NCBI GenBank assembly: GCA_963770835.1
Contig: CAVYRH010000011.1
Span: 224,001-288,000 of the forward strand
Length of the DNA stretch: 64,000 nucleotides
Reading direction: 5' to 3'
Source of the DNA: an uncultured Pseudomonadota bacterium
GTDB lineage: Bacteria > Oederibacteriota > Muellerivitia > Muellerivitales > Muellerivitaceae
Position numbers and translations under genes: made by a program. Below, one piece after another: positions 86 to 23,049 of the stretch (within the stretch, counting starts at the first letter, position 1; each line of letters begins with the position of its first letter). The notes below the pieces were generated by a model. The model did no database searches. It had not been told where the DNA came from and worked only from the letters and a program-made list of their open reading frames with translations.

Positions 86-1501
86 TTAAGGATGGCCCTC
101 TTCCGGAACCAAACCCTCATGATGAGTTGTCTCCAATTTACGGATGAGATTCTTGATGTCGTAATTGTTGGGATCGAACTGCTCCGCTTTCCGGGCCTCG
201 TAAAGGGCGGAAGAGATGTTATTCAGGGCAAAATCATTTACCCCTTGGTCATAGTCTTTTTTAGCATCATCCAGTATGGGACGGGGCGTTACAACCCATT
301 CATTGCAGGCGTATTTCTCCTGGCCTCCGACCACCGAACGGACAATGATGTGGTACCGAATGCCGTTCGTAGCTCCCCGCAACAGGCAATATTTGGTTTG
401 AAGAAGCTCTTGTTTGGCCCGTTGGAAGTCCTTTTGCTCATCAGATCGGAAATAGACCAGATAACCGTCGGCCTGGCTTCCCTCCGGGATATCCCATTTC
501 AGGTAGATTTCCCCGTCCCCGACCAGGGATTGGACCATATAGGGCCTTGGTTCGGCTTTTCCCGGTGGACCGACATTGAAAAAATAACTCGCCGATAGAC
601 GGTTATTGTTTCCAAGGTCCGGATGGTTGGCATAAGCGTAGTCGATCGACCAATCGGAGGCTCGGTAACTGGCTCCCACGCTGAATTCCCCAGGAAGTGT
701 GACAAAGCTGATGAACCCCGCCCGCAAACCCAGGCGACCGTCGAAAAACCAATGCTCCACTCCGCCCCGGATACGCACATCTTCCCCCCCGAAGAGAGCG
801 TCATCAGAAAGGGTCCATGGCAAATCCGTGGCAACAAGGGTATAAGGGTCGAATTGGTAGGCCAATCCCAACGTCAAAACTGAAGGAATGGCTTGTTCTA
901 CGCCAGTGCTGTCATAACGAACCATCGTGGAAAGGTCAGTTAAGACGAGACCAGCTTTGAATTCGGTGTTGTCCTTGAACGGTTGGCGATACAGAAAACC
1001 CAGATCGACGCCCGTGCCCTCCACCGTTCCCCCTCCCCCAATGCCAGTATTGGCGAAAAGGTAGCGAAAATTAGCCCCCATCAACAAACGCTTTTCCGTG
1101 ACAAAGTCGATGGGGATGGCGACAGATCCCGTGTATTGATCCTCCTCGGCGCCCGCGATATCGGTATAAAACAAGTCATTCACGCTGATAGCCAAATGAA
1201 TGTCGTCAGGCAATGGGTATTGGAAGGAAAAATAAAGATTGCGGTTCTTGTCGTTTAAATACGAACCATACATTCCAAGGATCTGAGGCTGGTCCAATTG
1301 AACCAGTCCGGCGGGGTTCCAGTAGGCGGCGCTGGCATCATCGGCAACGGCCACGAAAGCCCCGCTCAAACCCATGGCGCGGGTTCCCACCCCCAATACA
1401 CCGCCCCGGTCGAAGAGCGCATAGCAAGGAGCAACGATGAGATGAAGTAGCAGCGCTATTCCAAGAAGCCGCAGACAGGCTTTAACTTTCATAGAAGTCA
1501 T
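86..1501 (-). CDS. PorV/PorQ-like (FadL-superfamily) outer-membrane beta-barrel with C-terminal fibronectin type III-like domain and TPR-like helices
   Basis: Signal peptide (..APCYA|). Motif GVGTRAMGLSGAFVAVADDASAAYWNPAGL. Alternating beta-strands ending SASYFF, then FN3-like GDGEIYLKWD..ADGYLVY..NGIRYHIIVRSV and a helical tail (..KAEQFDPNN). Start could be 1492. Confidence 0.75.
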   Translation of the reverse strand: MTSMKVKACLRLLGIALLLHLIVAPCYALFDRGGVLGVGTRAMGLSGAFVAVADDASAAYWNPAGLVQLDQPQILGMYGSYLNDKNRNLYFSFQYPLPDDIHLAISVNDLFYTDIAGAEEDQYTGSVAIPIDFVTEKRLLMGANFRYLFANTGIGGGGTVEGTGVDLGFLYRQPFKDNTEFKAGLVLTDLSTMVRYDSTGVEQAIPSVLTLGLAYQFDPYTLVATDLPWTLSDDALFGGEDVRIRGGVEHWFFDGRLGLRAGFISFVTLPGEFSVGASYRASDWSIDYAYANHPDLGNNNRLSASYFFNVGPPGKAEPRPYMVQSLVGDGEIYLKWDIPEGSQADGYLVYFRSDEQKDFQRAKQELLQTKYCLLRGATNGIRYHIIVRSVVGGQEKYACNEWVVTPRPILDDAKKDYDQGVNDFALNNISSALYEARKAEQFDPNNYDIKNLIRKLETTHHEGLVPEEGHP

Positions 1502-1537: not shown

Positions 1538-4500
1538 TCAGTGAGTGACCAACACTTTAACTGTTTTGTTCAAGGCCTGCCCGCTTGCAGAATCAATCCC
1601 ATCCAGGACGGCCAAATAAACCCCTGAAGCGACCGTTTGGCCGGACGCATTTCTCAAGTCCCAGGTCGAGGACCCGGCGTTGAGAGTGACGGTTTGAACC
1701 AGTTCCCCGTCGGCCGTGTAGATTTTTATTTTACTTTGATTATTCGCCGGTGTCCCGGCAAAAGAAGCAGTGAAGTTGACGGTGCCGCCTGGATGAGCGA
1801 AGTTCGGCCAAGCGATTAACGATATCGATTCCCCGTGGAATGTCGCGATAAAGGCATCCCTTTCCATCTGGACGGTACTCCCGTCGTTCGCGTGTTCCAG
1901 CAGGACAAAATGGTAGAAGCCGTTCGGAACCCAACCGCCGCTATCTTTCGTAGCGTTCCAAGTCCCGACGGTTTGGCCGTTCAGGTAGATCGAAATGGTT
2001 CCACCAGGTCCGTTCGGATTGGGAGTGAAGTTAGAAAGAGTCATCGAAAAAGTTGCTCCACTCGAGAAGGAAAGGGAGCCGCAAATAGAAGCCACCAATT
2101 CTCCACGTTCATCGTAAATGGACACCACTTGCAGGCCGCAGCCCGATGAGCTAGTTGCGGTCGGCGTACCCGTGATTGTGAAGGTGGGTGTCACAGAGGG
2201 TGTCAACGTGATAGTCGACGTGGGCGTTTGGGTGGCGGTAGTCGTGGGGGTGAAGGTCGCAGTATGTGTCAGTGTATTGGTAACAGTAGTGGTTGAAGTG
2301 GACGTAGCGGTATTCGTTAACGTGGTTGTCGGGGTCTGGGTCGGTGTAAGGGTGGTGGTATTGGTCGATGTATAAGTTGTGGTAGCCGTAGGCGTATTTG
2401 TATGCGTGTTTGTCGGTGTGTTCGTCGGGGTAGTAGTAAACGTGTTGGCTGGAGTATTGGTTGTCGTGCTCGTGGAGGAATTCGTCGGGCTATTAGTTGT
2501 TGTCATCGTGGCTGTATTGGTAGCTGTGTTTGTGGGCGTATTGGTAGGTGTGTTGGTGGCAGTAAGTGAAGCTGTGTTGGTTGGTGTATTTGTAGTTGTG
2601 TTCGTAGCCGTATTAGTGGCTGTATTCGTGGCGGTGTTCGAAGATGTATTCGTTGCCGTATTGGTCGCCGTGTTGGTGGTTGTGTTGGTCGCCGTATTAG
2701 TGGCTGTGCTTGTGGTCGTAGTCGTGGCCGTATTCGTGGGCGTACCTGTAGGTGTATTGGTAGCCGTATTTGTGGGTGTATCGGTTGGCGGCAATGTTCC
2801 AGTGTCAGAGGGAGTAGCCGTCGCTGTCTTTGTGGGCGTTTCGGTTATGGTGCTCGTCGCGGTATTCGTAGGCGTATTCGTGGCAGTATTGGTTGCCGTC
2901 GTCGTGGTTGTATTTGTGGGCGTATCTGTTGGGGTATTGGTCGGAGTATTAGTCGTTGTATTAGAAGCAGTAGTAGTTGTTGTTTCCGTCGGAGTACTGG
3001 TGGTCGTATCAGTAGCAGTATTAGTCGCGGTATTAGTAGCCGTATTTGTAGCGGTATCGGTTGGAGTGTTCGTAGTCGTACTTGTGGCCGTATTAGTTGC
3101 TGTGGAAGTGGGTGTGGTTGTCGGAGTATCGGTAGCGGTGTTCGTGGTTGTATTCGTTAACGTGGTTGTCGGGGTCTGAGTAGGCGTATTGGTAGGGGTA
3201 TTAGTGGTCGTATTAGTTGTGGTATTGGTAGCCGTATTCGTTGGCGTGTCCGTCGTTGTATTTGTAGCAGAATTGGTGGCCGTGTTGGTGGCAGTATTCG
3301 TTGCAGTATTAGTTGGTGTATTGGTTGGAGTATTGGTGGTCGTATTCGTCGGGGTGTTAGTTGCGGTTTCTGTGGCCGTATTTGTAGCGGTGTTAGTAGC
3401 AGTATTAGTGGCTGTATTCGTTGGCGTATTGGTCGGAGTGTTCGTGGCTGTGCTGGTGGCGGTATTCGTTGCAGTGGTAGTCGCGGTATTGGTTGCCGTA
3501 TTCGTCGAGGTATTAGTCGCTGTGTTTGTGGCGGTGTTAGTAGCCGTATTAGTGGCTGTATTGGTTGCGGTGTTGGTTGCCGTATTCGTTGGTGTATTGG
3601 TAGCAGTATCGACAAAGGTATTCGTAGGTGTGTTCGTCGGAGTACTAGTAGTCGTGTTGGTAGCCGTGTTCGTGGCTGTATTAGTGGCTGTATTGGTTGC
3701 AGTGGTGGTTGCTGTGTTCGTTGGCGTGTTCGTCGCAGTATTCGTGGCCGTGTTCGTGGCTGTGCTCGTGGCGGTATTCGTCGGGGTGTTAGTCGCCGTG
3801 TTTGTGGCGGTGTTAGTAGCCGTATTAGTGGCTGTATTGGTTGCGGTGTTGGTTGCTGTATTCGTTGGCGTATTAGTAGCAGTGTTTGTGGCGGTATTGG
3901 TAGCTGTGTTAGTGGCTGTATTCGTTGGTGTATTGGTAGCAGTATCGACAAAGGTATTCGTAGGTGTGTTCGTCGTAGTACTAGTAGTCGTGTTGGTAGC
4001 CGTGTTAGTAGGCGTATTAGTGGCTGTATTGGTCGCAGTGGTGGTTGCTGTATTCGTTGGCGTGTTTGTCGCAGTGCTAGTAGCGGTATTCGTCGCGGTA
4101 TTTGTGGCAGTATTCGTCGCAGTGTTTGTTGGCGTACTTGTGGCAGTGCTGGTAGCCGTGTTGGTAGCGGTGCTAGTGGCCGTATTCGTGGTGGTATTGG
4201 TAGCAGTGTTCGTAGCTGTAGGTGTATTGGTCGGGGTATTCGTAGTCGTACTAGTCGCCGTATTTGTGGGGGTGTTAGTCGCTGTGTTTGTAGCGGTGTT
4301 AGTAGCCGTATTAGTGGCTGTATTCGTTGGCGTGTTTGTCGCAGTGTCAGTAGCAGTATTCGTCGCAGTGTTGGTTGCCGTGCTGGTGGCAGTTTTAGTA
4401 GCAGTATTAGTCGCCGTGTTAGTAGCGGTGTTGGTTGCCGTATTGGTAGCAGTGTTCGTTGGCGTATTAGTCGCTGTGTTTGTAGCGGTGTTAGTAGCCG

Positions 4501-7270
4501 TATTAGTGGCTGTATTCGTTGGCGTGTTTGTCGCAGTGCCAGTAGCAGTATTCGTCGCAGTGTTGGTTGCCGTGCTGGTGGCAGTTTTAGTAGCAGTATT
4601 AGTCGCCGTGTTAGTAGCGGTGCTGGTTGCCGTATTAGTGGCTGTATTCGTTGGCGTGTTTGTCGCAGTGCCAGTAGCAGTATTCGTCGCAGTGTTGGTG
4701 GCAGTATTAGTCGCCGTGTTAGTAGCGGTGTTGGTTGCCGTATTGGTAGCAGTGTTCGTTGGCGTATTAGTCGCTGTGTTTGTAGCGGTGTTAGTAGCCG
4801 TATTAGTGGCTGTATTCGTTGGCGTATTTGTCGCAGTGCCAGTAGCAGTATTCGTCGCAGTGTTGGTTGCCGTGTTGGTGGCAGTTTTAGTAGCAGTATT
4901 AGTCGCCGTATTCGTGGGGGTGTTAGTAGCCGTGTTGGTGGCGGTTTTCGTTGCAGTGTTAGTAGCGGTATTAGTGGCCGTATTGGTTTGAGTGGTAGTG
5001 GCTGTGTTGGTAGCTGTATTCGTCGCAGTATTAGTAGTGGTGTTAGTAGGTGTATTAGTTGGTGTGGTGGTAGTCGTATTCGTCGCAGTGTTAGTAGCAG
5101 AATTGGTCGGTGTGTAGGTAGCTGTGACAGTCGGTGTTTTAGTAGGAGTGCTTGTAGTTGTATAGGTGGGGGTGTTCGTCGGAGTGGCTGTTGGCAAGCA
5201 TGAGGCGGCAAAAAATTCCGCGCCCAAGATATCCGATTTTTCACTAGCTGTTATGGCATATTCCATTGGATAGGCGTAATTCCCAACGGCGGCTAGCTGG
5301 TAATCCCCTTCCCAACCTCGGTTTGTACCCACCGTTGTCCATGCTTGGTTTTGGTTTGTGTTGTTTTTGGTTATGGCGTCGGCGGCGGCATCATTAGCAA
5401 AGCCCACAATGAGTGAATTGGTGGCCTGAGTTAGAAGGCTTGTGGATGGATTTTTCGAAGCGGCAAAGTTCGTCGCGAGCGTAGTTCCAAGGGGTGAAGT
5501 TTGTGCCGCCCCCGTGAAAACCATGGCTCCCACCACGGCGGAAGGGACAGTGGCGGCGCTGAATTTTGCGATGATGGTTTGCGGGCCCGAGAACATACTG
5601 GTTCCCGGTAAATAGTAAATCCAGCTGCTGTCCCCGGTTTCCGCGGAATTAACCAGCGACACGGCGGCGGTTAAAGTAGCCGAAGTTGTGCCATTGGTGT
5701 CCGTAACGGGCGCGGAAATCAGGAGGTTGTCATGCTCGCTGATTTCAACAACAAGGAGCGGGTTCTGGCTTAGGACAGCGGCCGGGACGTTCAGAGGAAG
5801 GGTGACGGCCCCGGTATTGGTGCTGTAAAGCACTGTTGCCGCCGAAGAGTAAGCCAAGTTAAAGCAAGGCGTCGGAGTGGGTGTAAAAGCCGGGACAGAT
5901 CCACCACAACCGATTGCGTAGATAGAGTAATTATTCGTTCCTGTGGCTTGGTTGGTACCATTATCCGTGTAAGGATCTTGCAACGTGGGATAAGGCCCGT
6001 TGTTAATCGTCTCGGAATATTCCGTCCCGGCGGCTCCGGTGTTGTAAGAAACTTCTGCGGTGGTGCCAATAAAGTAAAACTCAAGCCAGTAACTTCCCGG
6101 TGGGAGGGCCGTCGGCGAAACCGCGACTAGGTTCCATCCAGCCACCATGGAAGTTTCATCGCTTTGGACAAGCAGGCTTCCCGGGAACCCGCCATCGTTC
6201 GAATATATTCCTAAGACGCCGGTAACAGCGGTGGCCGTATTTAAGTTAATTTCCATCTCAGTAATTGTGGCGGCGCTGGACAAGGTGTAAAGAGAACCAT
6301 CTTGAAGTCCTACCTCGTTGCCGCTGACATTGGCGCCGACAGTCGTTAAGCCAACCGTTTGAGGGGAGGCACAGGCGGGAGTAGGAGTGGCCGTTATACA
6401 CGGGGCAGGGATAATAGACTGGATTGTGTCGGTTGCACCCGTTCCCGCCGTGAACCCCCAATTAACGACCGATTGGCCGCCAAAAACGCTATTCACCAAG
6501 TCGCGCGAATAAACCATGGATTGGGGATTTCCGTTCGAGTCCACGATGGTAAAAGTAAGCGTCTTCGCGGCGGCAGACCAAGTGATGGTAACGGCGTGGT
6601 TGCCAGTGGTGAAAATACTGGACGTGAAAGTGTAGGGGCAGATATCACCTGCGGTGACATATTGGCAGCTATTATTGGCTGGAGCGGGCCCATTGCCGTT
6701 TTCGGAGGTTTCCAATTCCCCATCCCCATAGGTACCCGCGTAAGTATTCAAGGTAAATGCCATCGACGGTGATATAGAAGCAGCGCCGGAATAACCCAGG
6801 CAGGCGCCACAAGAAGTGCCGCCATTATCACTTATGGCATAAATACCTTGCGGATCGTTTTGCAGGACGAAAGCGATGCCATCCGCCCCACCCGTCGCCC
6901 CGACATTGTAGGTGAAGGCCATGTTGAAATTCGAGGTAAGAGTCACGGGAGATAAGCTCCAACAGGCTCCTGCTTGCCCGGTTGACGCGCCAGTCAGGGT
7001 GACAGCGCCGCCAGGACCCGCAACCGCAGTCCCCACTAAATTCCAGCTTGGGCAGACCTGGGCTTGCACCTTGGATTCGATTCCGCAAAAAATAAAAATC
7101 AAAAACGAACAGAGATAGCGTGAAATCTTTACATTGGTGAATCGGGGAAATCTGAACAAAGCAAAATGACCCAAAAGCCATATAAATGGAAATGTTGAAG
7201 TCAATACCAAAGCAAAAAGAAGAACGTTAAAATAAATAGCATTAGAGTATTCCAAAATGTGACCCGTCAT
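1538..7270 (-). CDS. Giant secreted/surface protein: L-type lectin domain, two further beta-rich domains, ~1000 aa Thr-rich repeat stalk, tandem FlgD-Ig/T9SS-CTD-like C-terminal domains
   Basis: ATG at 7270 with GAGGAG RBS at 7275-7280. Legume-lectin motif LTGASTGQAGACW..GGADGIAFVLQ..WGFTAGTG. TNTA/TNTP repeats. C-terminus WPN..IKIYTADGELVQT..WDLRNASGQTVASGVYL..KVLVTH. Confidence 0.85.
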   Translation of the reverse strand: MTGHILEYSNAIYFNVLLFALVLTSTFPFIWLLGHFALFRFPRFTNVKISRYLCSFLIFIFCGIESKVQAQVCPSWNLVGTAVAGPGGAVTLTGASTGQAGACWSLSPVTLTSNFNMAFTYNVGATGGADGIAFVLQNDPQGIYAISDNGGTSCGACLGYSGAASISPSMAFTLNTYAGTYGDGELETSENGNGPAPANNSCQYVTAGDICPYTFTSSIFTTGNHAVTITWSAAAKTLTFTIVDSNGNPQSMVYSRDLVNSVFGGQSVVNWGFTAGTGATDTIQSIIPAPCITATPTPACASPQTVGLTTVGANVSGNEVGLQDGSLYTLSSAATITEMEINLNTATAVTGVLGIYSNDGGFPGSLLVQSDETSMVAGWNLVAVSPTALPPGSYWLEFYFIGTTAEVSYNTGAAGTEYSETINNGPYPTLQDPYTDNGTNQATGTNNYSIYAIGCGGSVPAFTPTPTPCFNLAYSSAATVLYSTNTGAVTLPLNVPAAVLSQNPLLVVEISEHDNLLISAPVTDTNGTTSATLTAAVSLVNSAETGDSSWIYYLPGTSMFSGPQTIIAKFSAATVPSAVVGAMVFTGAAQTSPLGTTLATNFAASKNPSTSLLTQATNSLIVGFANDAAADAITKNNTNQNQAWTTVGTNRGWEGDYQLAAVGNYAYPMEYAITASEKSDILGAEFFAASCLPTATPTNTPTYTTTSTPTKTPTVTATYTPTNSATNTATNTTTTTPTNTPTNTTTNTATNTATNTATTTQTNTATNTATNTATKTATNTATNTPTNTATNTATKTATNTATNTATNTATGTATNTPTNTATNTATNTATNTATNTPTNTATNTATNTATNTATNTATNTATNTATGTATNTPTNTATNTATSTATNTATNTATKTATSTATNTATNTATGTATNTPTNTATNTATNTATNTATNTPTNTATNTATNTATNTATNTATKTATSTATNTATNTATDTATNTPTNTATNTATNTATNTATNTPTNTATSTTTNTPTNTPTATNTATNTTTNTATSTATNTATSTATSTPTNTATNTATNTATNTATSTATNTPTNTATTTATNTATNTPTNTATNTTTSTTTNTPTNTFVDTATNTPTNTATNTATNTATNTATNTPTNTATNTATNTATNTATNTATNTATNTPTNTATSTATNTATNTATNTPTNTATTTATNTATNTATNTATNTTTSTPTNTPTNTFVDTATNTPTNTATNTATNTATNTATNTATNTATNTSTNTATNTATTTATNTATSTATNTPTNTPTNTATNTATNTATNTATETATNTPTNTTTNTPTNTPTNTATNTATNTATNSATNTTTDTPTNTATNTTTNTTTNTPTNTPTQTPTTTLTNTTTNTATDTPTTTPTSTATNTATSTTTNTPTDTATNTATNTATNTATDTTTSTPTETTTTTASNTTTNTPTNTPTDTPTNTTTTTATNTATNTPTNTATSTITETPTKTATATPSDTGTLPPTDTPTNTATNTPTGTPTNTATTTTTSTATNTATNTTTNTATNTATNTSSNTATNTATNTATNTTTNTPTNTASLTATNTPTNTPTNTATNTATMTTTNSPTNSSTSTTTNTPANTFTTTPTNTPTNTHTNTPTATTTYTSTNTTTLTPTQTPTTTLTNTATSTSTTTVTNTLTHTATFTPTTTATQTPTSTITLTPSVTPTFTITGTPTATSSSGCGLQVVSIYDERGELVASICGSLSFSSGATFSMTLSNFTPNPNGPGGTISIYLNGQTVGTWNATKDSGGWVPNGFYHFVLLEHANDGSTVQMERDAFIATFHGESISLIAWPNFAHPGGTVNFTASFAGTPANNQSKIKIYTADGELVQTVTLNAGSSTWDLRNASGQTVASGVYLAVLDGIDSASGQALNKTVKVLVTH
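2150..5197 (-). repeat. Intragenic 12-bp-period degenerate tandem repeat encoding (T-N-T-A/P)n, with higher-order duplicated blocks
   Basis: Translation has Thr at almost every second residue. 4441-4500 is identical to 4741-4800. The TFVDT block recurs near 3606 and 3942. Confidence 0.95.
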
Positions 7271-7643
7271 CTGGCTCCTCAATCAAGTAAAACAGTTACC
7301 CTTAAACTTCCATACAATTTTACCCCATATTTGGGCGAACTCAAGTGAACAATGGGGTAACTTTTTATTGAAAAAACAAGGGAAAACAAGCTTTTCTTAT
7401 AATCACTTAAAATTAATCTTCTTTTGAACTTGGGATTTAAGTTCATTTGAAGTTCATCCGTAGCTTGAATTGAGTCTTTTTTTCCCAATTGTTTATTTTT
7501 AACCCACATTCATAACGTTTTATGCTTCTTAAAAGGTGCTTTTTCCATCGAAAAACGAAATTTCAAGTTGGCACTACTGTTGCGTTATGTAAGACCAACG
7601 GCGGTTGAAATGGGACGGCCGAACTCAAAAGAGCGGGTGACTT

Positions 7644-8603
7644 ATGAAAAAATTTTTTTCTCTCTCGGTGCTGGTAATTCTCATAACACAAGGTCCATGG
7701 GGTTGTGGACACATCCAAAACCCAACTTCTCCCCTTGTCAAAAGCTCCAATGAACCTTCAACCACCCCAAACCCGTCCTATGTCGCGGCCTGGTCCAAAG
7801 CCGGTTCGGTGTCCTTTGTCAATCCCCAATGCGTGGCCGTGGATGAAAATAACAACATCTACGTCACGGACATGTATCTGGGGGAGGTTTTTAAGTTCGG
7901 CACCAACGGCAATCTTTTAGCCCAATGGAGCAACACCGGCACAAATATCTTAAACGAACCCAATGGGATCATGGTTGAAAACGGGAATATTTACGTAGCG
8001 GATTCTGGTAACGACCGCATCGTGGAATTCGATCCGAACGGCAATATGCTGGCCCAACTGTGCCCCGCCGGTTCCGATGGATACGACCTCTTTGTTTACC
8101 CCACAGGAATTTCGTTTGACCCATCCGGCAACCTTTACGTGGCAGACAATTCCGACCAGGTCTACCAATTCAACTCCTCCCTCCAGTTGAGCGCCCAGTG
8201 GGGGGTGAGCGGGTCGACCAACGGTGCCTTTAATTATCCTGTCGTGTCGGCCGAGGACGGCTTGGGGAATGTTTATATCGTGAACAACAACGCCGACAAC
8301 ATCGTCAAATTCAACCCCGCTCTCAACAATGTCGCGACTTGGGGCCGGATAGGCAGCCAAAACGGGCAATTCGAGGGCCCCAATGACGTCAAACTGGATT
8401 CCAATGGAAACGTTTATGTGGTGGACACCGGGAACAACCGCATCGAGGTCTTCACCACCACCGGTACTTATCAAATACAATGGGGCAACGTTTCCAACTC
8501 CCAAGGCTTGAACGGACCAACCGGTATTGCCTTAGATTCCAACGGAAACGCCTACGTGGTGGACAATGGTAACAACCGGATTGTCAAATACACCTTGAAT
8601 TAA
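7644..8603 (+). CDS. NHL-repeat beta-propeller protein, probable lipoprotein
   Basis: Six repeats like PxGIALDSNGNxYVVDxGNNRI. N-terminal signal with a Cys (GPWGC). Confidence 0.85.
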   Translation: MKKFFSLSVLVILITQGPWGCGHIQNPTSPLVKSSNEPSTTPNPSYVAAWSKAGSVSFVNPQCVAVDENNNIYVTDMYLGEVFKFGTNGNLLAQWSNTGTNILNEPNGIMVENGNIYVADSGNDRIVEFDPNGNMLAQLCPAGSDGYDLFVYPTGISFDPSGNLYVADNSDQVYQFNSSLQLSAQWGVSGSTNGAFNYPVVSAEDGLGNVYIVNNNADNIVKFNPALNNVATWGRIGSQNGQFEGPNDVKLDSNGNVYVVDTGNNRIEVFTTTGTYQIQWGNVSNSQGLNGPTGIALDSNGNAYVVDNGNNRIVKYTLN

Positions 8604-9276: not shown

Positions 9277-9900
9277 TCAAAGATAAAGCTGTTGGTTGTG
9301 AATAAATTGTTCCACTGGTTCCGGCACCAAGTATTTTATGCTTTTCCACTCCTTAACACGGCGGCGAACATCGGTAGCACTTATTTCAAGCATAGCCGTT
9401 TCTTCAACCGATATTCTTTCAAGCCATTGGGAAGCTAAAAAATGATTTTGCGACGACAAAAACTGCTGGTTTAATATTTTTTTCATGTCGTAGCCCGGTC
9501 GTGAAACAGCAATAAAATGGCAAATTTCAAGCAATTCGGCGATGTTTTTCCATGAGGCTATTTCTATCAACATATCGGCCCCAATTATAAAATAAAGCTC
9601 AACTTTACCCTCGAAAACACGGTGGAAATGTTTGACAGTGTCAATCGTATAAGATTTGCCGCCACGGTCGACTTCATAGGTGGAAACTTCAAAACAGGGA
9701 TTACTGACAGTCGCAAGATAGGTCATAATCGATCTTTTTTTGGCATCCACCAAATCTATCGGTTCTTTGTGAGGAGGCAAGCTGGTTGGGATAAAGATGA
9801 TTTTGTCTAGGTTGTGCTTTGATCGGACTTCCTCGGCAATAGCCAAGTGTCCGTAATGAATGGGATTAAAAGTTCCTCCAAACAACCCAACGGATTTCAT
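9277..9900 (-). CDS. nadD: Nicotinate-nucleotide adenylyltransferase
   Basis: GLFGGTFNPIHYGHL, PPHK, SYTIDT, FIIGAD, ISATDVR motifs. Confidence 0.97.
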   Translation of the reverse strand: MKSVGLFGGTFNPIHYGHLAIAEEVRSKHNLDKIIFIPTSLPPHKEPIDLVDAKKRSIMTYLATVSNPCFEVSTYEVDRGGKSYTIDTVKHFHRVFEGKVELYFIIGADMLIEIASWKNIAELLEICHFIAVSRPGYDMKKILNQQFLSSQNHFLASQWLERISVEETAMLEISATDVRRRVKEWKSIKYLVPEPVEQFIHNQQLYL

Positions 9901-11657
9901 TAATGTCCGGACTCGTCGGGATCTTTGAGCAGGAAATTGATCATATCTCCAGTTAAAACCTCTGTATCACTTTTTTCAGAACTATCGGAGGAAGCAAAAG
10001 AAGCTGCCGATGGAATTGTAGTAGTTCCTACTTCTTTTTTCCGAATATCGGACTGGTTTTTAACTTCTCTTTCATCCTTTGGAGCAGTAGAAATCACCCT
10101 TCCTTTTGCAACTTGAACTAGTTTATCCAGTTCATCCTTACTCAACCCACTCGTCGCCGATACTTTCATTTGTTGCATTTGACCAGTGGCTACATTTTTT
10201 GCCGTCACATGCACGATACCGTTTGAGTCAATAGCAAAGGTTACTTCGACCTGAACAGTGCCGGCTGGCGCCGGAGGCAACCCTACGAACGAAAAAAAAC
10301 CCAATGTCTTATTGTTGTTAGACGCTTTGGATTCTCCTTGCAAAACCTTTACATTGACTGATGTTTGCATGTCCTTGACCGTCGAATAAAGCTTGCTCAT
10401 TTTGGTAGGAACAGTTGTATTGCGGGGAATAATAACGCTAAAAGTTCCTCCTAAGGTTTCAACGCCGAGCGACAAAGGTGTCACATCAAGTAAAAGGGCG
10501 TTGCGGACGTTCCCATTGATAATCCCAGCCTGTATGGAGGCTCCCATGGCCACCGCTTCGTCCGGATTCACCCTGGTGTTAGGCTCCCTATTAAAAAACC
10601 GGCGAACGGTATCACGTACCTTTGGCATACGGGTCATGCCACCTACCAATATTACGTCGTTAAGGTCCGTGGGAGTCAGGTTGGCGTCACGAAGGGCCTT
10701 TTTGCAGGGTTCTAGCGTCCTTTCGACCAGCGAAGCGACGAGCGTTTCGTAATCCATACGAGACAAATTGTAAGAAAGATTAAGCGGTGTTCCCTCTTTT
10801 TTGGTGATGAAGGGAAGATTAATATCAACATTGGGCGCAGAAGATAAATCACATTTCGCTTTTTCAGACGCTTCACGCAATCGTTGCAAAGCAACAGGTT
10901 CCTGCCTCAAGTCAACTCCCTGTTCCGCGCGGAACTTTTCAAGCACCCATTGCATAATAGTTTGATCGAAGTCATCCCCGCCCAAATGAGTATCGCCACA
11001 GGTCGCTAACACCCTGTAAAGGCCGTTTAAAAGCTCCAGAATTGTGACATCTAGCGTACCGCCCCCCAAATCATAAACAGCGATTTTTTGGTTTTTCTTT
11101 GTATCAAAATCGTAAGCCAAGGCTGCGGCAGTTGGTTCATTAATAATCCTTAAAACTTCAAATCCCGCTATTTTCCCTGCGTCCTTAGTGGCTTGCCGTT
11201 GCGAATCGTTGAAATAGGCTGGAACGGTGACTACCGCGTTTGTCACTGTTTCGCCCAAACGAGCTTCCACATCCTGTTTTATTTTTTGGAGGATTATGGC
11301 CGAAATTTCCTCAGGAGATTTAAGCTGATCATCCAGATGGACGCGGATATCACCGTTTTCGGCCCCTTCGATGGCATAGGGTACGAGGCTCTTATCCTTT
11401 TGGACGTCCTCGTCCGTAATTTTACGGCCAATAAATCGCTTTATAGAAGCAACCGTGCCACTGGGATTCGTAACAGCCTGGTGTTTCGCATCCAAACCGA
11501 CCAACCAGTTTTTCTGCGATGTAAATGCCACCACGGATGGGGTCGTAGAATATCCATCAGAGTTTGGGATGACTTGTGGCTCGCCTCCATTTAAGTAGGC
11601 AACGCAGGAATTAGTCGTCCCTAAATCGATTCCAACGGCTAAACTTTTATCCGCCAT
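9900..11657 (-). CDS. dnaK: Hsp70/DnaK paralog with truncated or absent C-terminal lid
   Basis: GIDLGTTNS, TVPAYFND, INEPTAAA, DLGGGT, LGGDDFD and LLLDVTPLSLG motifs. C-terminus diverges after GLSKDELDKLV. Confidence 0.9.
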   Translation of the reverse strand: MADKSLAVGIDLGTTNSCVAYLNGGEPQVIPNSDGYSTTPSVVAFTSQKNWLVGLDAKHQAVTNPSGTVASIKRFIGRKITDEDVQKDKSLVPYAIEGAENGDIRVHLDDQLKSPEEISAIILQKIKQDVEARLGETVTNAVVTVPAYFNDSQRQATKDAGKIAGFEVLRIINEPTAAALAYDFDTKKNQKIAVYDLGGGTLDVTILELLNGLYRVLATCGDTHLGGDDFDQTIMQWVLEKFRAEQGVDLRQEPVALQRLREASEKAKCDLSSAPNVDINLPFITKKEGTPLNLSYNLSRMDYETLVASLVERTLEPCKKALRDANLTPTDLNDVILVGGMTRMPKVRDTVRRFFNREPNTRVNPDEAVAMGASIQAGIINGNVRNALLLDVTPLSLGVETLGGTFSVIIPRNTTVPTKMSKLYSTVKDMQTSVNVKVLQGESKASNNNKTLGFFSFVGLPPAPAGTVQVEVTFAIDSNGIVHVTAKNVATGQMQQMKVSATSGLSKDELDKLVQVAKGRVISTAPKDEREVKNQSDIRKKEVGTTTIPSAASFASSDSSEKSDTEVLTGDMINFLLKDPDESGH

Positions 11658-11672
11658 TCAATCCTCGATCAG

Positions 11673-12239
11673 TCAAACTTTCTTACCATAGACAAAACCC
11701 ATGGCTGTACTAAGGGTTTTTTTAGCTTCATAATCCGCCGGGTTGTACTTAATAGTCCTTTCAAAACAAGATACCGAATCCTTAAAGTTACCCTGGTAAC
11801 CATATAAAATCCCTAGATTAAAATGGGCATTTACAAATCCCGGAATCAGCTTGGTACAGGTAACCCATTCATGTTGGGCTTGGTTCCAATTGTCTTTGTC
11901 CTCAAAGAAGACAACACCCTTTTGAAAATGTTCCTCTGCCTCAACTTCTTCCTTGGATTTCATCATTTTTAAAAGGCCCCTCTTAACGCCGAATAATTCG
12001 CCTGTCTCTTTTCGGATATCATTCTTTACCTGAAAATTGTAGAGTTCCCTTTTTTGTGGGTCACTCAACACGTTGTAAGCTTCGACGATTTCCATGGTCT
12101 GTTCAATAGCCCAATCCTGCCGAGTTGGATTGCGATCTGGATGATACTCAAAAATTAATTGCTTATAGGTTTCTTGTAACTGATTCATCTCAATCGGTGG
12201 ATATAATTTGAAAATTTCATAATAATTTTTTTTTGGCAT
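11673..12239 (-). CDS. J-domain (HPD) plus TPR co-chaperone
   Basis: NYYEIF..EYHPDRNP..AYNVLSDPQKRELY J-domain followed by TPR (AHFNLGILYGYQGNFKDSVSCFERTIKYNP). ATG at 12239 preferred over TTG at 12323. Confidence 0.85.
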   Translation of the reverse strand: MPKKNYYEIFKLYPPIEMNQLQETYKQLIFEYHPDRNPTRQDWAIEQTMEIVEAYNVLSDPQKRELYNFQVKNDIRKETGELFGVKRGLLKMMKSKEEVEAEEHFQKGVVFFEDKDNWNQAQHEWVTCTKLIPGFVNAHFNLGILYGYQGNFKDSVSCFERTIKYNPADYEAKKTLSTAMGFVYGKKV

Positions 12240-12355
12240 TGGTTTTGACCTTGTCCCACTGACCGGCCTACGGTGACTGTTGAATTTGTCAACATCGTTG
12301 CATTTTAACAGTTTTGATTCCAAATAAAACTGGTAATAACAATACTATAAAAAGC

Positions 12356-15581: not shown

Positions 15582-16508
15582 CTAGTACCAGAAAAGAAGG
15601 CCAAACAGATGGGAACTGGCGATAAAGTTGGAGCTGACCTGTGCCGGACGCCAGGCATATCCAATTTCATACTGTAGTTTGCCAATATTATAACGGAGTG
15701 CCGCTCCCGCCGAAAAACCCCCTTCCAGATTTTCCGAATCACTGAACCGGTATCCGGCGCGGATCGCCAAAACACTTCGATGCCAATATTCAAGACCTAC
15801 CGAAGCCTGACTTCCTTCGTCAAGAACATTAAAAACTTCCGCAGCAGCTAAGAGGGTTGAACTAGGTGAAACGATAAGAGGACGCGCCACACCTAAGCGA
15901 AAAGTCAGGGGCAGTGGATCCGAAGCCTGGGAATTCGGTTGAAATTGAACGTTGGGGCCCACATTTTGAGCCACCGCGGCGAAATCCGTATCCCAAAGTT
16001 GAATTTTAAATCCAAGGTCAATCGCATTGGTGAAAGCTTGTTTTTCACCCAGAGTCGAAACAATAGTTTTAAAAGCGCCACCCACCGCTATTTTCCCAAA
16101 CTGTTGGCCGTCTGCAAACGTCACTACAAAATCACTTGCCGAAACCGTTGGATCGGTGGCCAACGTATTCTGGATATCAGGCATGTGCCGGAAAATAATT
16201 TGAGCGCCCAAATTCCCATAATTTTTAGTAGGAATAGCCACACTCAGGGATTCAACTTGAACATCCGCGAAGCCTTGAATGTGATCGATACCTAAACTGT
16301 AAGTGGAGATTCGAGCTAATCCAGCTGGGTTGTAGCCGATAACGTAAACATCATCTCCTAATGCCGAGTATGTGCCTCCCAAAGCGGCCGGTCTTACTCC
16401 GATAGGAACCTTTAGAATGTCAGCACCGGTGGTTCCCGTATCTTGGGCCCACAGACCACCGGGGAAAGAAAAAGTCACAACCACTAAAATAAAATAAATA
16501 CTCTTCAT
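15582..16508 (-). CDS. PorV/PorQ-like outer-membrane beta-barrel (stand-alone)
   Basis: Signal peptide (GLWA|Q). LKVPIGVRPAALGGTYSALGDD..YNPAGL motif. PLTFRLGVA. Aromatic C-terminus (LLFWY). Confidence 0.8.
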   Translation of the reverse strand: MKSIYFILVVVTFSFPGGLWAQDTGTTGADILKVPIGVRPAALGGTYSALGDDVYVIGYNPAGLARISTYSLGIDHIQGFADVQVESLSVAIPTKNYGNLGAQIIFRHMPDIQNTLATDPTVSASDFVVTFADGQQFGKIAVGGAFKTIVSTLGEKQAFTNAIDLGFKIQLWDTDFAAVAQNVGPNVQFQPNSQASDPLPLTFRLGVARPLIVSPSSTLLAAAEVFNVLDEGSQASVGLEYWHRSVLAIRAGYRFSDSENLEGGFSAGAALRYNIGKLQYEIGYAWRPAQVSSNFIASSHLFGLLFWY

Positions 16509-16514
16509 TCAAGC

Positions 16515-16544
16515 AAACTAACACGATGGATGCAAAGGGGTCAA
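16515..16544 (-). promoter_or_regulatory. Sigma70-type promoter, probably giving a leaderless mRNA for the 15582-16508 barrel
   Basis: TTGACC-N18-TAGTTT with extended TGn. The -10 element ends 6 nt before the ATG and there is no Shine-Dalgarno. Confidence 0.55.
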
Positions 16545-16555
16545 GAAAACCCTCA

Positions 16556-18171
<1,616 letters not shown>

Positions 18172-18243
18172 CTATAAAACCACTGAAGTCGGAATAAATT
18201 TCAAAATCCCGTAAAATTAATCTTTGGAAGATCCATATTAATA

Positions 18244-20034
18244 TTAATTATGACTGAGTTTTTCAATGGATTGGAGTTTGACATAAGCTTTGTTAATGTT
18301 GCTCTGAGCGTTAATATTGCCAGGGTCTTCCTTCAAGACTTCTTTCCATTTTCCAATGGCTTCATTAATTTTTCCATTAATATAGAGGTTTACTCCATCG
18401 TAATAGAGCGCCTTAACTTTCTCTGCGTCCACCTTTTCTTGGGATTGCTGTCCTGTCATGCGCTTAACATAATCATTTGCCGTATCATCGTTTGACTTAA
18501 GCCGCAACACTTCCTGGAATTTCTCTTCGGCCTTTTCCTTGTTGCCGCTTTCATACAGGGAAATACCATCAGCATCCAGAGTTTTTACTTTTACACTGAT
18601 GTCTTTCTGGATCTTAAAAAAGGCCGTTCCAATCTTTTCATTGTCAGGAGCCAGGTCTTTGGCGAGGGAAATATATTTTTGGGCGTTTTTTAAATCACTT
18701 TTGGAATATGACTTAAGGGCTTTTGCATAAACTGCATCCAATTCGGTTGTTTGTTTAGACAGCAGCTTTTTAAGCCGGCCTTTCACTAGGGAATTGCGAG
18801 GATCTATTTCTTTCGCCTTGTTGTAATTGACCAACGCGTCGGAATAATCCTGTCCCTGATAATACTGATCCCCTTCCGAGATCAAAGCCTTGATGCGAGA
18901 AGTTCGGTTGACATTCAAAGCCTTTATGGCTTTTTGCACTTTTTCGTTGTTGGGGTCCATTGTTAACGCCAGGTTCCATTCATTAAGGGCCTGAAGCGTG
19001 TTGCCTTTTTTAAGGTCGGCTTTGCCTGCCACATAGTGCTTATCCACTTCAACACCTAATTTCGCTTGAGCGTCACCAATAAAACCTTGGGCTTGTTTAT
19101 TGTTGGAGTCCAACTTCAAGATATTGTTAGCCTCAGAAATGGCATCGGTGTATTGGCTGTTCAACATATAGTTACTGGCCTTTTCGAGATGAGTGTTGAC
19201 AGCGGCTTCATTAGCCTGGGCCTGGGCAACAGCAGCATTGGAATCCTTGGGGTTGACCTTGGATGCGTTTTCGAAAGCCTCTGCCGCTTCGTCAAAAGAA
19301 GCGTTGTCAAGATAGGCTACCCCTAAGTCATAGTAAGTCTCATCGAGGGAATCTGTGTCTTGATCTTTAGGAGCCAAAGAAGTTTCGAGTTTGATTGATT
19401 TATTATAGTTCTCAATCGCGTTGTTAAAATCACCAAGGTTGTAATAGGAAAAACCCAGGAACTTATAAATTCGGGGGTCTTCCCGAAGCTTCACCGCGCG
19501 TGTCCAGTTTTCAACAGCTTTTTTATAATCTTTTTGTTGGAAATAAATCACGCCTAAATTTTGGAGAGCCGAAAAGTTCTTCGGGTCTTCTTGAACAATT
19601 TCATTTAATACCGCCACTGCCTCCGTGTACTTTTTTTCGTCCATGAAAACCTTGGCTTGGCATTGAATTAATAAATGCTTGGCATTGGGATCATTCGGAT
19701 TAATTTTAAGTGTGTTTTGAAAATGGCTGATAGCCGATGCATAGTCACCTTTGGAGCGAGCAACGATGCCTTGGCAAAGCTCAAGATATCCTTTGGCATC
19801 GGCATCTTTGGAATCTAATTGTAAACATCTCGCAAATTCGGGGATGGCTTGGTCAAACTTCTGGTCGTTTAAGTAAGAAATTCCAAGGTTATAGTGGGCT
19901 TTTTCATTGTTAGGGTCGGCCTTAATGGCCTGTTGATAAATAGCTTCGTTGCTTGAATCCTGTCCTAGGGTAAGCAAGGGGAAAAAAAAGAAGACGGACA
20001 AAAGGAAAGTAATAAATTGAGCCGTTTTTTTCAT
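18244..20034 (-). CDS. Exported multi-TPR protein
   Basis: Signal peptide, then many TPR units (AHYNLGISY, ALQNLGVIYF, YYDLGVAY, ALNEWNLALTMDPNN). Confidence 0.88.
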   Translation of the reverse strand: MKKTAQFITFLLSVFFFFPLLTLGQDSSNEAIYQQAIKADPNNEKAHYNLGISYLNDQKFDQAIPEFARCLQLDSKDADAKGYLELCQGIVARSKGDYASAISHFQNTLKINPNDPNAKHLLIQCQAKVFMDEKKYTEAVAVLNEIVQEDPKNFSALQNLGVIYFQQKDYKKAVENWTRAVKLREDPRIYKFLGFSYYNLGDFNNAIENYNKSIKLETSLAPKDQDTDSLDETYYDLGVAYLDNASFDEAAEAFENASKVNPKDSNAAVAQAQANEAAVNTHLEKASNYMLNSQYTDAISEANNILKLDSNNKQAQGFIGDAQAKLGVEVDKHYVAGKADLKKGNTLQALNEWNLALTMDPNNEKVQKAIKALNVNRTSRIKALISEGDQYYQGQDYSDALVNYNKAKEIDPRNSLVKGRLKKLLSKQTTELDAVYAKALKSYSKSDLKNAQKYISLAKDLAPDNEKIGTAFFKIQKDISVKVKTLDADGISLYESGNKEKAEEKFQEVLRLKSNDDTANDYVKRMTGQQSQEKVDAEKVKALYYDGVNLYINGKINEAIGKWKEVLKEDPGNINAQSNINKAYVKLQSIEKLSHN

Positions 20035-20051
20035 TGTTCCCTCTGGTTTAA

Positions 20052-21269
20052 TTATGGATTAGTTGGAGCGGAAACGTCTAAAACCAGCAATTCATCAGTG
20101 GTTTTCTTGTGCTTATCCGTCTGGCTACATCGAATCATCGTACCATCAATCGACCATGACAATTCGGCAGTATAGTCAAGGTTTTCACTTGTTTTCAACA
20201 ACTGTTTGTAACCGGCACCATCGGTATCCACTAAACAAACCTTTCCTGCATAAACATAGGCAATTTTATTTCCCGTTGGATAATAAGCGGGGTGGATACC
20301 CAAATTAGCGCTTCGAGTGTAAAAAAGCGTTTGAGTCGCCTTAGTTCTCACATCTGTTTTTTGAAGTTGTCTTTTCTTACCAACTGTCTGCCAATAAACA
20401 AGATATCGGCCATCGGGAGTCCATGCGGGAATCTCAGCCCCAAAACTTTGGTTTAGAGGATGGAATACAGCGTTGTCGCTTTTAGTCGGGACCCTGGCGA
20501 CAAAAAGGTAATATTTGCCGTTCGAACCTCGTTTTCGTTCAGCCAAATAAGAACCATCCGGGGATTGCATCACCTGTTCATCCAGGGTCGCAGGAAAATC
20601 ACCCTCATAACTTTTGTTGAACGGTATCTCGTTCTTTAGAACGATCCAATCCACGCTGGTATTAGCGATTCCTTGGGCACGTCGAGCTCGGTCGGCCAAG
20701 AAATCTATCTTGGCTCTCGTGTCCGCCTGGATAAAAAGCAAGGGAAAGGTTTTGTAAATATTATCAAGGGTCTCCCCAGCATTTTTGTAATTTTTTTGAA
20801 CAAACAGGGCCGTGGCGGTCGAGATCTGGGCATCGATTAGCGATTGGATCGCGTCGTGAATTTGAACATTTCCCATATATCGGTTGTAAGCTTTTTGGCT
20901 GTAATCCATGGCCTTGGAAGGATTTTTGAGTTTGTCGCGATAAAGCGCGGCCAAATCGAGAAGCGCGTGAAGTTCTTCATCAGTCTGGGGAAAATCACGG
21001 ATTATTTTCTCATACCATTGAATAGCATTCGTGTAATCCGACTGCGCCTCATAATTTTTAGCGATTCGGTAATCCGCCTGCGGTGCGAGCACGGAAGAGG
21101 GCTGGTGGGTCAAATAATTCTGGTAAGCCTGTATGGCCTGAGCGTTTTTGCCTGCCTTGTCCAAGTCGCCAGCCGACTCAAACGATCCACCCAAGTATTG
21201 ACAACCGCCTAAAAACCCAAGAAAAAGCAAAAGCATCGGTGGAAAAAAAGCGGGAGTTATCTTTTTCAA
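20052..21269 (-). CDS. Lipoprotein with N-terminal BamD/CpoB-like TPR and C-terminal TolB/PD40-like beta-propeller
   Basis: Lipobox LGGC. TPR (AIQWYEKIIRDFP). Propeller motifs SPDGSYLA, PAWTPDGRYLVY, PAYYPTGNKIAY, SWSIDG. Confidence 0.8.
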   Translation of the reverse strand: MKKITPAFFPPMLLLFLGFLGGCQYLGGSFESAGDLDKAGKNAQAIQAYQNYLTHQPSSVLAPQADYRIAKNYEAQSDYTNAIQWYEKIIRDFPQTDEELHALLDLAALYRDKLKNPSKAMDYSQKAYNRYMGNVQIHDAIQSLIDAQISTATALFVQKNYKNAGETLDNIYKTFPLLFIQADTRAKIDFLADRARRAQGIANTSVDWIVLKNEIPFNKSYEGDFPATLDEQVMQSPDGSYLAERKRGSNGKYYLFVARVPTKSDNAVFHPLNQSFGAEIPAWTPDGRYLVYWQTVGKKRQLQKTDVRTKATQTLFYTRSANLGIHPAYYPTGNKIAYVYAGKVCLVDTDGAGYKQLLKTSENLDYTAELSWSIDGTMIRCSQTDKHKKTTDELLVLDVSAPTNP

Positions 21270-21291
21270 TTCTTCGGAAACCTTTCGGGAT

Positions 21292-23049
21292 TTATTTGGT
21301 AATCACGACGATATCCACGCGGCGGTTTTTGGCGCGAGCATCTTCCGTGTCAGAAGTATCCAAGGGACTGGCGGAGCCATGACCGCGGGAATAAAGATTA
21401 TCAGGCGAAACTTTTCCCTTTTCCACCAAATACCTCAAGACTTCGTCGGCCCGGTTTTGGGAAATAACCAGTGCCTGTTTTTCAGTCCCTTCATCTGGAT
21501 CCGCGTGGCCCTCAATGTAAACGCGGCAGTTGGGGTACCTGCGAATTAAACGGGCCACCTGGTCCAGGTAGTTATAGAATCCCGAACTTAATTTGGGGCT
21601 CTTTTCTCCGAAGGAAACGCTGGGCACTTTTACCACACCCGACATTCCCACCGGCTGCAAGGACGGGGGAATGGAAGGCGCCGAAAAAGCCTGAGGCACC
21701 ACGGATGCGGACGCGAATAAAGGTGCTTCTTTTGTCGAAACTTTTGCCACTTTAAAAATCGGATCGCTCGCCACCACTTGCTGACCCCGGACGTCCACCG
21801 TCCTCAAATTGTAGTTAGCGAAAATACCTCCAGTGACAACATTGCCGTTGTTGTCTTTTCCATCCCAGGCAATCTGACGAGGCGGGACTCCCTTCCCGCT
21901 GTAGCTCCGAAGAACGTTGCCCTTGGGATCGGTAATTTCGAGGGTCCAATTCTTGATATCTGTTCGGGCTTGGGGCTTTATGTCGAAAGTAGCCTGTCTA
22001 ATTGTTTGAGTCTGGTAATCGGCAATTTGTGTATTAATAGCTACCGCCGATGCTTTTTCTGTTTGAGGTCGTTGGACGGTTTGATTTTCCTCAAAACCGA
22101 ACCGGTAGGTCAGTGAAAACCTCTGGGTATCCCCCAAAACGCCGAACGGTACCAAGGCATAATTGAGTTCAAAATCAGAAAACCGAAGACCGGCGCCAAC
22201 GGAAGCTCCGACTCCACTCCCCAAATCCTGGTTCAAGGGATTAAAACTGTACCCGCCCCTAATCGCTACCGCGAAGGATTTTCCCCCCCACCAAAACTCT
22301 CCTCCCGTTTGGACAACGGCATCGTTGTCAATGGGCTTTTCCAAATCCACGCCCGCCAAGAAATGAATGGAACCGGGCGATTGGAACCGGTAAACCAGCC
22401 CGGATCGATAAACCAACGGTAATTTTTCCTGCGACGAATAGTCGGAAAAATTTGAGATCTGGCCTACATTCTGGACCGAAAGACCCAGGGTCCAATCTTT
22501 TTCCTTCGTGTAAAGCAAAAGACCGGCATCCATGGCTTCGCCGATGGCGGAATAGGTGACCAGGTTACTGGAAATGAACTTGCCCCCGATCCCCAGGGCA
22601 AAATTGTCCCCAAAAGTTTGGCCATAGCCCAAGGCAACGGCCAAATCGTTGGCGCTTCCCGGAATGGCTGCGGGGTTATTCGTGGAATTAAAACTGGGTA
22701 CAAAATCGAAAGACGCGCTTAACCCCAAAGTACTGCCAGGTTGAAGGGGTAAGGCCGCCCCCAAGAACTCATAATCCGTGCCGGCAAAATAAGCGACATG
22801 AAGAAGGTTGAGTTCAATATTATTCAATTGAGCTAATCCCGCCGTGTTCCAATACATCGTGCTAACATCATCCGCTACGGCGGTAAACATGCCACCCATA
22901 CCCGCGCCGCGAACACCAGCCGGAATTTCCAAAAATTGGACCCCTGTGGTGCTTACGCTATCCGAAAATGAAAAAACCGGAATTAAAAACAGAACCGAAC
23001 TAATAAAAAGGGGAGCAAGAAACTTAAAAATCCAGGATTTGAAGATCAT
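21292..23049 (-). CDS. PorV/PorQ-like barrel fused to a FlgD-Ig-like domain and an OmpA-like peptidoglycan-binding domain
   Basis: FLEIPAGVRGAGMGGMFTAVADD..YWNTAGL. Barrel ends SLTYRF. WTLEITDPKGNVLRSYSG..WDGKDNNGNVV. OmpA motifs IEGHAD..ISQNRADEV..GHGSASP..KNRRVDI. Confidence 0.85.
   Translation of the reverse strand: MIFKSWIFKFLAPLFISSVLFLIPVFSFSDSVSTTGVQFLEIPAGVRGAGMGGMFTAVADDVSTMYWNTAGLAQLNNIELNLLHVAYFAGTDYEFLGAALPLQPGSTLGLSASFDFVPSFNSTNNPAAIPGSANDLAVALGYGQTFGDNFALGIGGKFISSNLVTYSAIGEAMDAGLLLYTKEKDWTLGLSVQNVGQISNFSDYSSQEKLPLVYRSGLVYRFQSPGSIHFLAGVDLEKPIDNDAVVQTGGEFWWGGKSFAVAIRGGYSFNPLNQDLGSGVGASVGAGLRFSDFELNYALVPFGVLGDTQRFSLTYRFGFEENQTVQRPQTEKASAVAINTQIADYQTQTIRQATFDIKPQARTDIKNWTLEITDPKGNVLRSYSGKGVPPRQIAWDGKDNNGNVVTGGIFANYNLRTVDVRGQQVVASDPIFKVAKVSTKEAPLFASASVVPQAFSAPSIPPSLQPVGMSGVVKVPSVSFGEKSPKLSSGFYNYLDQVARLIRRYPNCRVYIEGHADPDEGTEKQALVISQNRADEVLRYLVEKGKVSPDNLYSRGHGSASPLDTSDTEDARAKNRRVDIVVITK

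Follow-up and report, generated by a model that had tools for sequence, protein, structure and literature searches.

A run of five co-oriented envelope genes in an uncultured bacterium raises the question of whether parts resembling Bacteroidota's type IX secretion system (T9SS) serve a lineage outside that phylum, and what the run itself contributes. It lies at 15582–23049 of the window, the stretch of 64,000 nucleotides of contig CAVYRH010000011.1 (assembly GCA_963770835.1) that was analysed. A preliminary description made from the letters alone had seen in it a single T9SS-like cluster with rearranged domains. All five minus-strand open reading frames (ORFs) and their domains proved to be real, with gaps of 17–72 bp. 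A tRNA-Gly(CCC) gene between the third and fourth genes had been overlooked, and it divides the run into two modules, A-B-C and D-E. The proposal made here, with moderate confidence, is that A-B-C serves a type-IX-like system, one without a detectable GldKLMN motor, as an optional holdfast in the periplasm. The features of the run are as follows (CTD, C-terminal domain; Ig, immunoglobulin-like).

21292–23049, minus strand: gene A, PorV-family outer-membrane barrel with a FlgD/CTD-type Ig domain and an OmpA-like domain
20052–21269, minus strand: gene B, lipoprotein in which about four TolB-like propeller blades come after a CpoB/YbgF-like TPR part
18244–20034, minus strand: gene C, multi-TPR protein, exported but lacking a lipobox, with a conserved C-terminal motif
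18097–18171, minus strand: tRNA-Gly(CCC), between C and D, boundary of the two modules
16556–18124, minus strand: gene D, short-loop TonB-dependent-receptor fold (plug and 22 strands), lineage-restricted small family
15582–16508, minus strand: gene E, stand-alone PorV-family barrel without periplasmic tail and without adjoining cargo gene

Type IX-like components of the host genome

The host stands outside Bacteroidota, as had been supposed. Among its relatives the close ones carry the label candidate division FCPU426 and the more distant ones Goldiibacteriota or looser labels, and NCBI lists both FCPU426 and Goldiibacteriota as candidate phyla. No SprA had been seen in the window and none is there; the search of the whole genome, which is 96% complete, revealed a sub-cut-off homologue of the SprA/Sov translocon on another contig (1994-residue ORF, C5:192794–198778; TIGR04189, E 5.8e-34). 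In a phylum sample of 99 genomes from 23 families SprA was matched in 92, seven of them over the cut-off of the model. PorV-family carrier barrels and CTD cargo, which also mark a T9SS, were both found in the host genome. It holds 24 PorV-family ORFs, 15 of which lie directly behind a CTD gene, as against 40 of 3001 other genes (a background of 1.3%). A purpose-built CTD profile, seeded from 45 TIGR04183 matches in the host genome, recognized a CTD-like end in 127 host ORFs and in none of the reversed-sequence control.

Profile searches run without a true positive control gave no GldK in the one genome searched, no GldL or GldN in five, and no GldM in 99 apart from one trace at E 0.137. The motor and ring built of GldK/L/M/N (PorK/L/M/N) are likely absent, as far as such profiles can tell. 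Two genes placed just before sprA in another clade were considered as a hidden motor and rejected, being an MCP chemoreceptor and a DUF3108-like protein; the latter is unmatched in the host genome. The four ExbB/TolQ loci of the host, all exbB-exbD-tonB-like, adjoin tonB-like genes and receptors, not A-B-C or sprA. At the level of the genome, the proposal of a T9SS-related system was supported, with SprA and CTD cargo and no motor match; the cluster as its minimal form was not, since it can be lost where SprA and cargo stay.

Genes resembling lptF and lptG lie near the start of sprA in the host genome (G000, C5:187879–192794) and likewise in families f7/f10 (L063, L065, L068). Together with the O-antigen-ligase-like and GT9 genes that precede sprA in families f8 and f15–f23, they hint at a link to lipopolysaccharide handling.

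A PorV-family barrel with a periplasmic tail

The product of gene A comprises a PorV-family barrel (residues 34–317), a FlgD/CTD-type Ig domain (352–408) and an OmpA-like domain (480–576). The barrels of A and E had been taken for PorV-like rather than FadL-like, and this assignment held. They scored 149 and 130 bits, respectively, against the NCBIfam model PorV_fam (cut-off 90), and the best PDB barrel match of A among the matches listed is PorV (6H3I_F, E 2.8e-22). The profile of E found PorV 6H3I as its sole PDB match at E ≤ 1, with no FadL chain, and neither protein is closer to FadL/TodX than to PorV. Both matched UPF0164, neither matched Toluene_X at E ≤ 0.01 in the Pfam search, and both fall far below the PorV and PorQ equivalog cut-offs. 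In the tail of A, Pfam FlgD_ig scored 28.5 bits (cut-off 27) and OmpA 60 bits (cut-off 27.2).

Judged from sequence, the wall-binding residues of the OmpA-like domain are mostly degenerate or non-canonical. With the residues placed by motif spacing and not by structure (the motif was unreadable in 2 of 39 rows), the Asp was found in 7/37 orthologues and the Asn in 14/37; the Arg is kept in 38/39. All but one of the 37 orthologues lack the full peptidoglycan-binding pair of PorE, Asp576 and Asn584 in PMC12773672. A prediction of the A+B complex, with a score of 0.17 and a mark of 0.32, is evidence neither way.

One paralogue (G000, C19:60765–63014) is a PorV, Ig and OmpA fusion behind a CTD gene, in the order cargo, barrel, Ig, OmpA, TPR, and its type was found as well in G004, G006 and G015. 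It retains all three wall-binding residues and, because of this canonical motif, is a better candidate for a wall anchor than A. Another conserved fusion of the same composition lies at C11:209699–212098 (G000), and both further fusions were seen in L122, L123 and L126–L128.

The lipoprotein and the TPR protein beside the barrel

Gene B encodes a lipoprotein with an N-terminal TPR part, as in PorE: its lipobox Cys is present in 37/40 orthologues, a TPR match is accompanied by a weak PD40 match, and the TPR helices are seen in the predicted model. This model (pLDDT 92) shows a CpoB-like TPR part and about four propeller blades, without the N-terminal domain of TolB. The two domains that had been described are thus present, the propeller being a partial one. 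The best Foldseek matches are TolB. Among 40 B proteins the TolB model matched all 40, YbgF 38 and BamD 35 (weakly), while the PorE model NF052230 matched a single one (E 8.6e-4) and otherwise recovered only isolated TPR or OmpA pieces in 5/5 genomes searched. In PorE the TPR, propeller, CRD and OmpA_C parts share one chain, whereas B ends after its four or so blades and the FlgD-type Ig and OmpA domains sit on A. The suggestion that the domains of PorE are redistributed over A and B can be kept as an analogy, because the two proteins offer the same fold classes beside a carrier barrel. As a statement of homology it is not upheld, because of the 1/40 against 40/40 matches, the FlgD-type Ig domain and the partial propeller.

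No TolB over its cut-off was found in the 5/5 genomes searched, and no tolQ, tolR or tolA stands beside A-B-C in any locus read. The fold matches listed for B and D include no T9SS protein, which excludes nothing. In a word-limited search the homologues of B fell from 244 to about 100 bits, below which only generic TolB-type proteins appeared; atlas searches returned generic plug or PD40 clusters only. Two other propeller gene pairs were observed in G000. One, which is conserved, encodes two TolB-like propeller lipoproteins and has no Pal next to it (C11:195939–198312); in the other, propeller-bearing pair (C11:147850–153135), the end of the larger member resembles that of an outer-membrane barrel.

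The product of gene C consists of TPR throughout, after a signal-peptide-like start. It had been equated with PorW/SprE, a TPR lipoprotein, and this identification was not supported: C has no lipobox Cys and scored 34 bits against NF052312 (cut-off 250), below many generic TPR models. The gene was found in 75/99 genomes, and most of the 24 from which it is absent have SprA. All 39 named C loci of a word-limited search were labelled FCPU426, Goldiibacteriota, Firestonebacteria or looser.

Conservation of the trio and its linkage to sprA

B was detected in 58/99 genomes, and in 51 of these A-B-C is contiguous and in the same order, across 12/23 families. Of the other seven cases, four lie on broken contigs (including G008, whose neighbourhood was not fetched) and three have lost neighbours (G097, G077, G067). 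The loci L033 and L037 were TolB-like false matches and were left out of the synteny count. Synteny in relatives, proposed as a check, was confirmed for the trio, which in one clade is also linked to sprA; the five genes stand in a row in family f1 only, that is, in the host and 14 relatives.

Of 24 genomes in the clade formed by families f8 and f15–f23, 14 have B and sprA on one strand, with B 3.6–11 kb upstream; of the remaining ten, eight have contigs that end too early and two continue with other genes. In 14 loci of this clade a CTD gene precedes A by 270–1400 bp, and it is absent from three loci with enough room. Because these genomes are kin, the linkage of B to sprA is counted as one ancestral event. 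The relocated trio of G071 and G072 also has a CTD gene upstream of A, at a distance of 90–101 bp. In the six loci read of families f7/f10 (L071–L074, L081, L082) C directly follows the gene of a CTD protein of 340–396 residues instead of A-B. A second C paralogue was seen in f7/f10 about 20 kb upstream of sprA (L063–L070).

The module behind tRNA-Gly

Gene D, without any Pfam or NCBIfam match, was modeled (pLDDT 87) as a plug and a 22-strand barrel of about 490 residues, the architecture of TonB-dependent receptors such as BtuB and Cir; it superposes on BtuB with Z 33.9 and a root mean square deviation of 2.9 over 453 residues. It departs from these receptors in its size, its very short loops, the missing Pfam match and an apparent start in a tRNA gene. 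The barrel had been called reduced, which is true of the loops and not of the strand number. PorF, of which D had been taken for a counterpart, has a TonB-receptor-like fold, and nothing beyond this fold was found to link the two. For PorF itself a tentative small-molecule role is all that is given in section 2.6 of PMC12398890, and T9SS models gave 0 matches among 21 D proteins. The D family counts 53 representatives. Values of dN/dS of about 0.15–0.33 in four pairs indicate purifying selection on a fast-evolving gene (dN 0.39–0.55, compared with about 0.09–0.18 for E and A).

The start of D is likely a GTG (18124) in the T-stem of tRNA-Gly(CCC), the only ATG, GTG or TTG before the mature protein; the 3' half of the tRNA gene would then supply the codons for the positively charged leading part of the signal peptide. 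D was detected immediately after the tRNA gene in 26 genomes, which are kin and so not independent; in 15 of them the frame is open from this GTG, with some nine different spacer lengths. In eight of these 15, host included, no other ATG, GTG or TTG gives a full signal peptide, as read from the listed starts. Nine of the remaining 11 have an ATG or TTG of their own and two look frameshifted, and four further loci have the tRNA gene with no D within 1.2 kb. The probable identity of D is that of a small, independent TonB-dependent receptor whose translation begins within a tRNA gene.

E is the most conserved of the five genes, and its clear orthologues (≥52% identity) occur in 26/32 genomes of the order of the host and nowhere else. 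Being conserved and slow-evolving, tail-less and without a cargo neighbour, it is the best candidate for, and probably is, the general shuttle of this order.

The module D-E was found only in the order of the host. Integrase-like genes or foreign DNA lie directly behind tRNA-Gly(CCC) in three loci (L019, 1–6500; L023, 2806–3978; L062, 2533–2877). The tRNA gene thus resembles a site of integration, a possible reason for the breaks between A-B-C and D-E.

A holdfast model and its alternatives

The closest known arrangement is that of PorP, PorE and PG1035 in Porphyromonas gingivalis and of the type B loci of Flavobacterium johnsoniae. PorE is a TPR-WD40-CRD-OmpA_C lipoprotein; its OmpA_C is essential, and its propeller is likely in contact with PorP, a barrel (PMC12773672). 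According to a published proposal, PorP-PorE links type B cargo that is not mobile to the wall (PMC9143113), and the F. johnsoniae CTD-porP/sprF-porE loci provide cognate barrels for type B cargo (PMC12618676). Common to these systems and to the trio are a 14-strand FadL-family carrier barrel, TPR, a TolB-type propeller, an Ig-like sandwich and OmpA_C, an accessory position with respect to secretion, and a genome with numerous pairs of a cargo gene and its cognate barrel gene. In contrast to them, the barrel of A is of the PorV family, the cargo is type-A-like, and the Ig and OmpA domains are fused to the barrel; the Ig domain is of the FlgD/CTD type and not a CRD, B has about four blades only, the wall-binding residues of A are degenerate, the TPR protein C is extra, and no PorK/N ring was detected. 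Compared with the PorV of the T9SS (6H3I chain F; NF033709), A and E pass the family cut-off; the host, however, has 24 paralogues, many with periplasmic tails, and not one shared shuttle.

In the model that is favoured, cargo would leave through SprA, as in the known T9SS, and then be handed to a PorV-family barrel, the receiving barrels being mostly cognate as with type B cargo in Flavobacterium. A would be a carrier with a built-in periplasmic tail that holds a CTD-tagged protein at the cell surface. B, the lipoprotein, and C, the TPR protein, would dock on A and, together with the Ig-OmpA tail, fix the unit from inside. The OmpA-like domain may tie the unit to the wall or, as the degenerate motif suggests, to a protein partner. 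D-E is a second unit behind tRNA-Gly. Overall, the assembly would work like PorP-PorE of Bacteroidota, built from other parts. A bolder version, in which FCPU426/Goldbacteria have a motor-less type IX system and A-B-C is an ancestral translocon-side scaffold (a barrel-fused, two-chain PorP-PorE with a TPR bridge), is put forward as a doubtful possibility.

Several observations weigh against the holdfast proposal. Every contact that it places among A, B, C, SprA and the CTD is one that we infer. By its profile matches B is nearer to TolB, CpoB and BamD than to PorE. The best stretch of the host SprA match reaches 117 bits, the cut-off being 200. Asp and Asn of the wall-binding motif are both present in 1/37 A orthologues and neither in 17/37, and no CTD gene adjoins A or E in the host genome. 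The linkage to sprA belongs to one clade, where the interval between B and sprA holds lacI, O-antigen-ligase-like, GT9 and DUF3108-like genes and often an MCP gene; in the family of the host, sprA is on another contig or about 200–380 kb away. Nor is the trio always kept together. G097 has B alone, and families f5, f7 and f10 have C without B. In G004 (99% complete) and G020, A-B is gone at the locus, with B undetected genome-wide and C kept; in G015 (99%) and G025 (97%), B and C are undetected genome-wide and no A stands beside the tRNA gene. All four genomes keep SprA, and CTD matches number 47 in G004, 23 in G015 and 14 in G025. It is because near-complete relatives drop A-B or all three genes and keep SprA and cargo that the trio is regarded as accessory and separable.

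The matches of B lend themselves to a different account, in which A-B-C is a compact Tol-Pal-like module for envelope tethering or division without any role in secretion; this is considered unlikely, and so, to the same degree, is its reading in parts, with B as CpoB plus TolB and A as the Pal part on a borrowed PorV barrel. B combines YbgF-like TPR with TolB-like blades and has TolB as its best Foldseek match (TolB in 40/40 and YbgF in 38/40 proteins), A ends like Pal, no TolB passed its cut-off in the five genomes, and PorV barrels carry every one of the three non-MotB OmpA domains of G006 (99% complete). Moreover, PorE itself has been read as a CpoB-TolB-Pal fusion tethering the outer membrane (PMC12204202). 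Against this, the propeller is partial and lacks the N-domain of TolB, the Pal-like domain is carried by a barrel and not by a lipid, and tolQ-tolR-tolA with full TolB and Pal was not found (loci read; TolB in five genomes). A and B are, besides, missing from the 99%-complete G004 and G015, and in one clade the trio has sprA and CTD genes as neighbours.

The preliminary description's proposal of a single minimal T9SS-related export machine, made up of the five genes and including true counterparts of PorE, PorW and PorF, is now improbable. It draws on the contiguity of the closely spaced genes in the host and 14 relatives of the same family and on a T9SS counterpart for every fold class. The two modules, however, separate, move and are lost independently: the tRNA gene splits the run, A-B-C stands apart from D-E in G071, G072 and G013, G024 lacks D, and clear E orthologues are confined to the order of the host. 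The PorE and PorW models stay far below cut-off, and G004, G015 and G025 retain SprA and cargo in the absence of A-B(-C). As these losses are independent, the five-gene machine is largely refuted. An accessory role in outer-membrane protein assembly, like that of BamG and the TPR lipoprotein BamD in the Flavobacterium BAM complex, is very improbable. It is suggested by the weak BamD matches (35/40), by a PpiD/SurA-like gene divergent from A and by BamG, whose FadL-family barrel serves a role other than transport (PMC12611786); the link to the PpiD/SurA-like gene is confined to family f1, no bamA occurs in any annotated neighbourhood, and the A-B-C genes are dispensable. Least probable is ordinary uptake machinery, with the barrels as FadL-like transporters of hydrophobic molecules and D as a nutrient receptor. 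PorV does belong to the FadL family (PMC9143113), A and E match UPF0164, Treponema pallidum has five 'PorV/FadL-like' proteins (PMC13749626), and the TonB-receptor fold of D coexists with four exbB-exbD-tonB-like loci; yet the PDB search with E found PorV and no FadL chain, and 15 of the 24 PorV-family members directly follow CTD genes. For D alone, the uptake reading may apply.

Other features of the window

At the beginning of the window a further barrel and its cargo were identified.

86–1501, minus strand: cognate PorV-family barrel of a separate pair, following the giant CTD gene at 37 bp, outside the conserved cluster
1538–7282, minus strand: giant Thr-rich secreted protein with a type-A-like CTD, cargo of the separate pair with the barrel at 86–1501

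The third barrel and the giant CTD protein reported near the run are both real (PorV_fam, 92 bits; TIGR04183, 23.1 bits, and the purpose-built CTD profile, E 2.5e-20). They belong not to the cluster but to one of the 15 cargo-barrel pairs found genome-wide, 8 kb from the run and with housekeeping genes between. Long alternative-frame ORFs across the giant gene (2379–5244) are by-products of its Thr-Asn-Thr-Ala repeats. Divergent from this gene, on the plus strand, lies a probable lipoprotein with NHL repeats (7644–8603). A second, short DnaK (585 residues) and a small DnaJ-TPR protein (9900–12323) are found family-wide behind obgE-proB. The scan for promoters and terminators stayed at chance level (10 against 9.7 expected; 8 against 10.9 expected).

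Implications

T9SS and SprA have been called specific to the FCB group (PMC12398890, PMC12611786), and the T9SS has been derived from the gliding motor (PMC12635249). No description of a T9SS-like system or of the A-E cluster in FCPU426/Goldbacteria was found in the literature searched, which covered few subscription papers and no supplements; in the extracts of the Goldbacteria paper PMC7031533 and of PMC8542988, type IX appears in the reference lists only. A phylum outside the FCB group with SprA matched in 92/99 genomes, many cargo-PorV pairs and no motor match makes two matters open to comparison, namely whether SprA can work without the PorKLMN chain and whether PorE serves secretion or envelope tethering. 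The start of D adds a case in which one stretch of DNA would serve both as tRNA and as code for a signal peptide. The cluster itself is a conserved candidate accessory module for which natural knock-out genomes exist (G004, G015, G025, G097). If the system is indeed motor-less and A-B-C its scaffold, type IX export would be older than, or separable from, the gliding motor of Bacteroidota.

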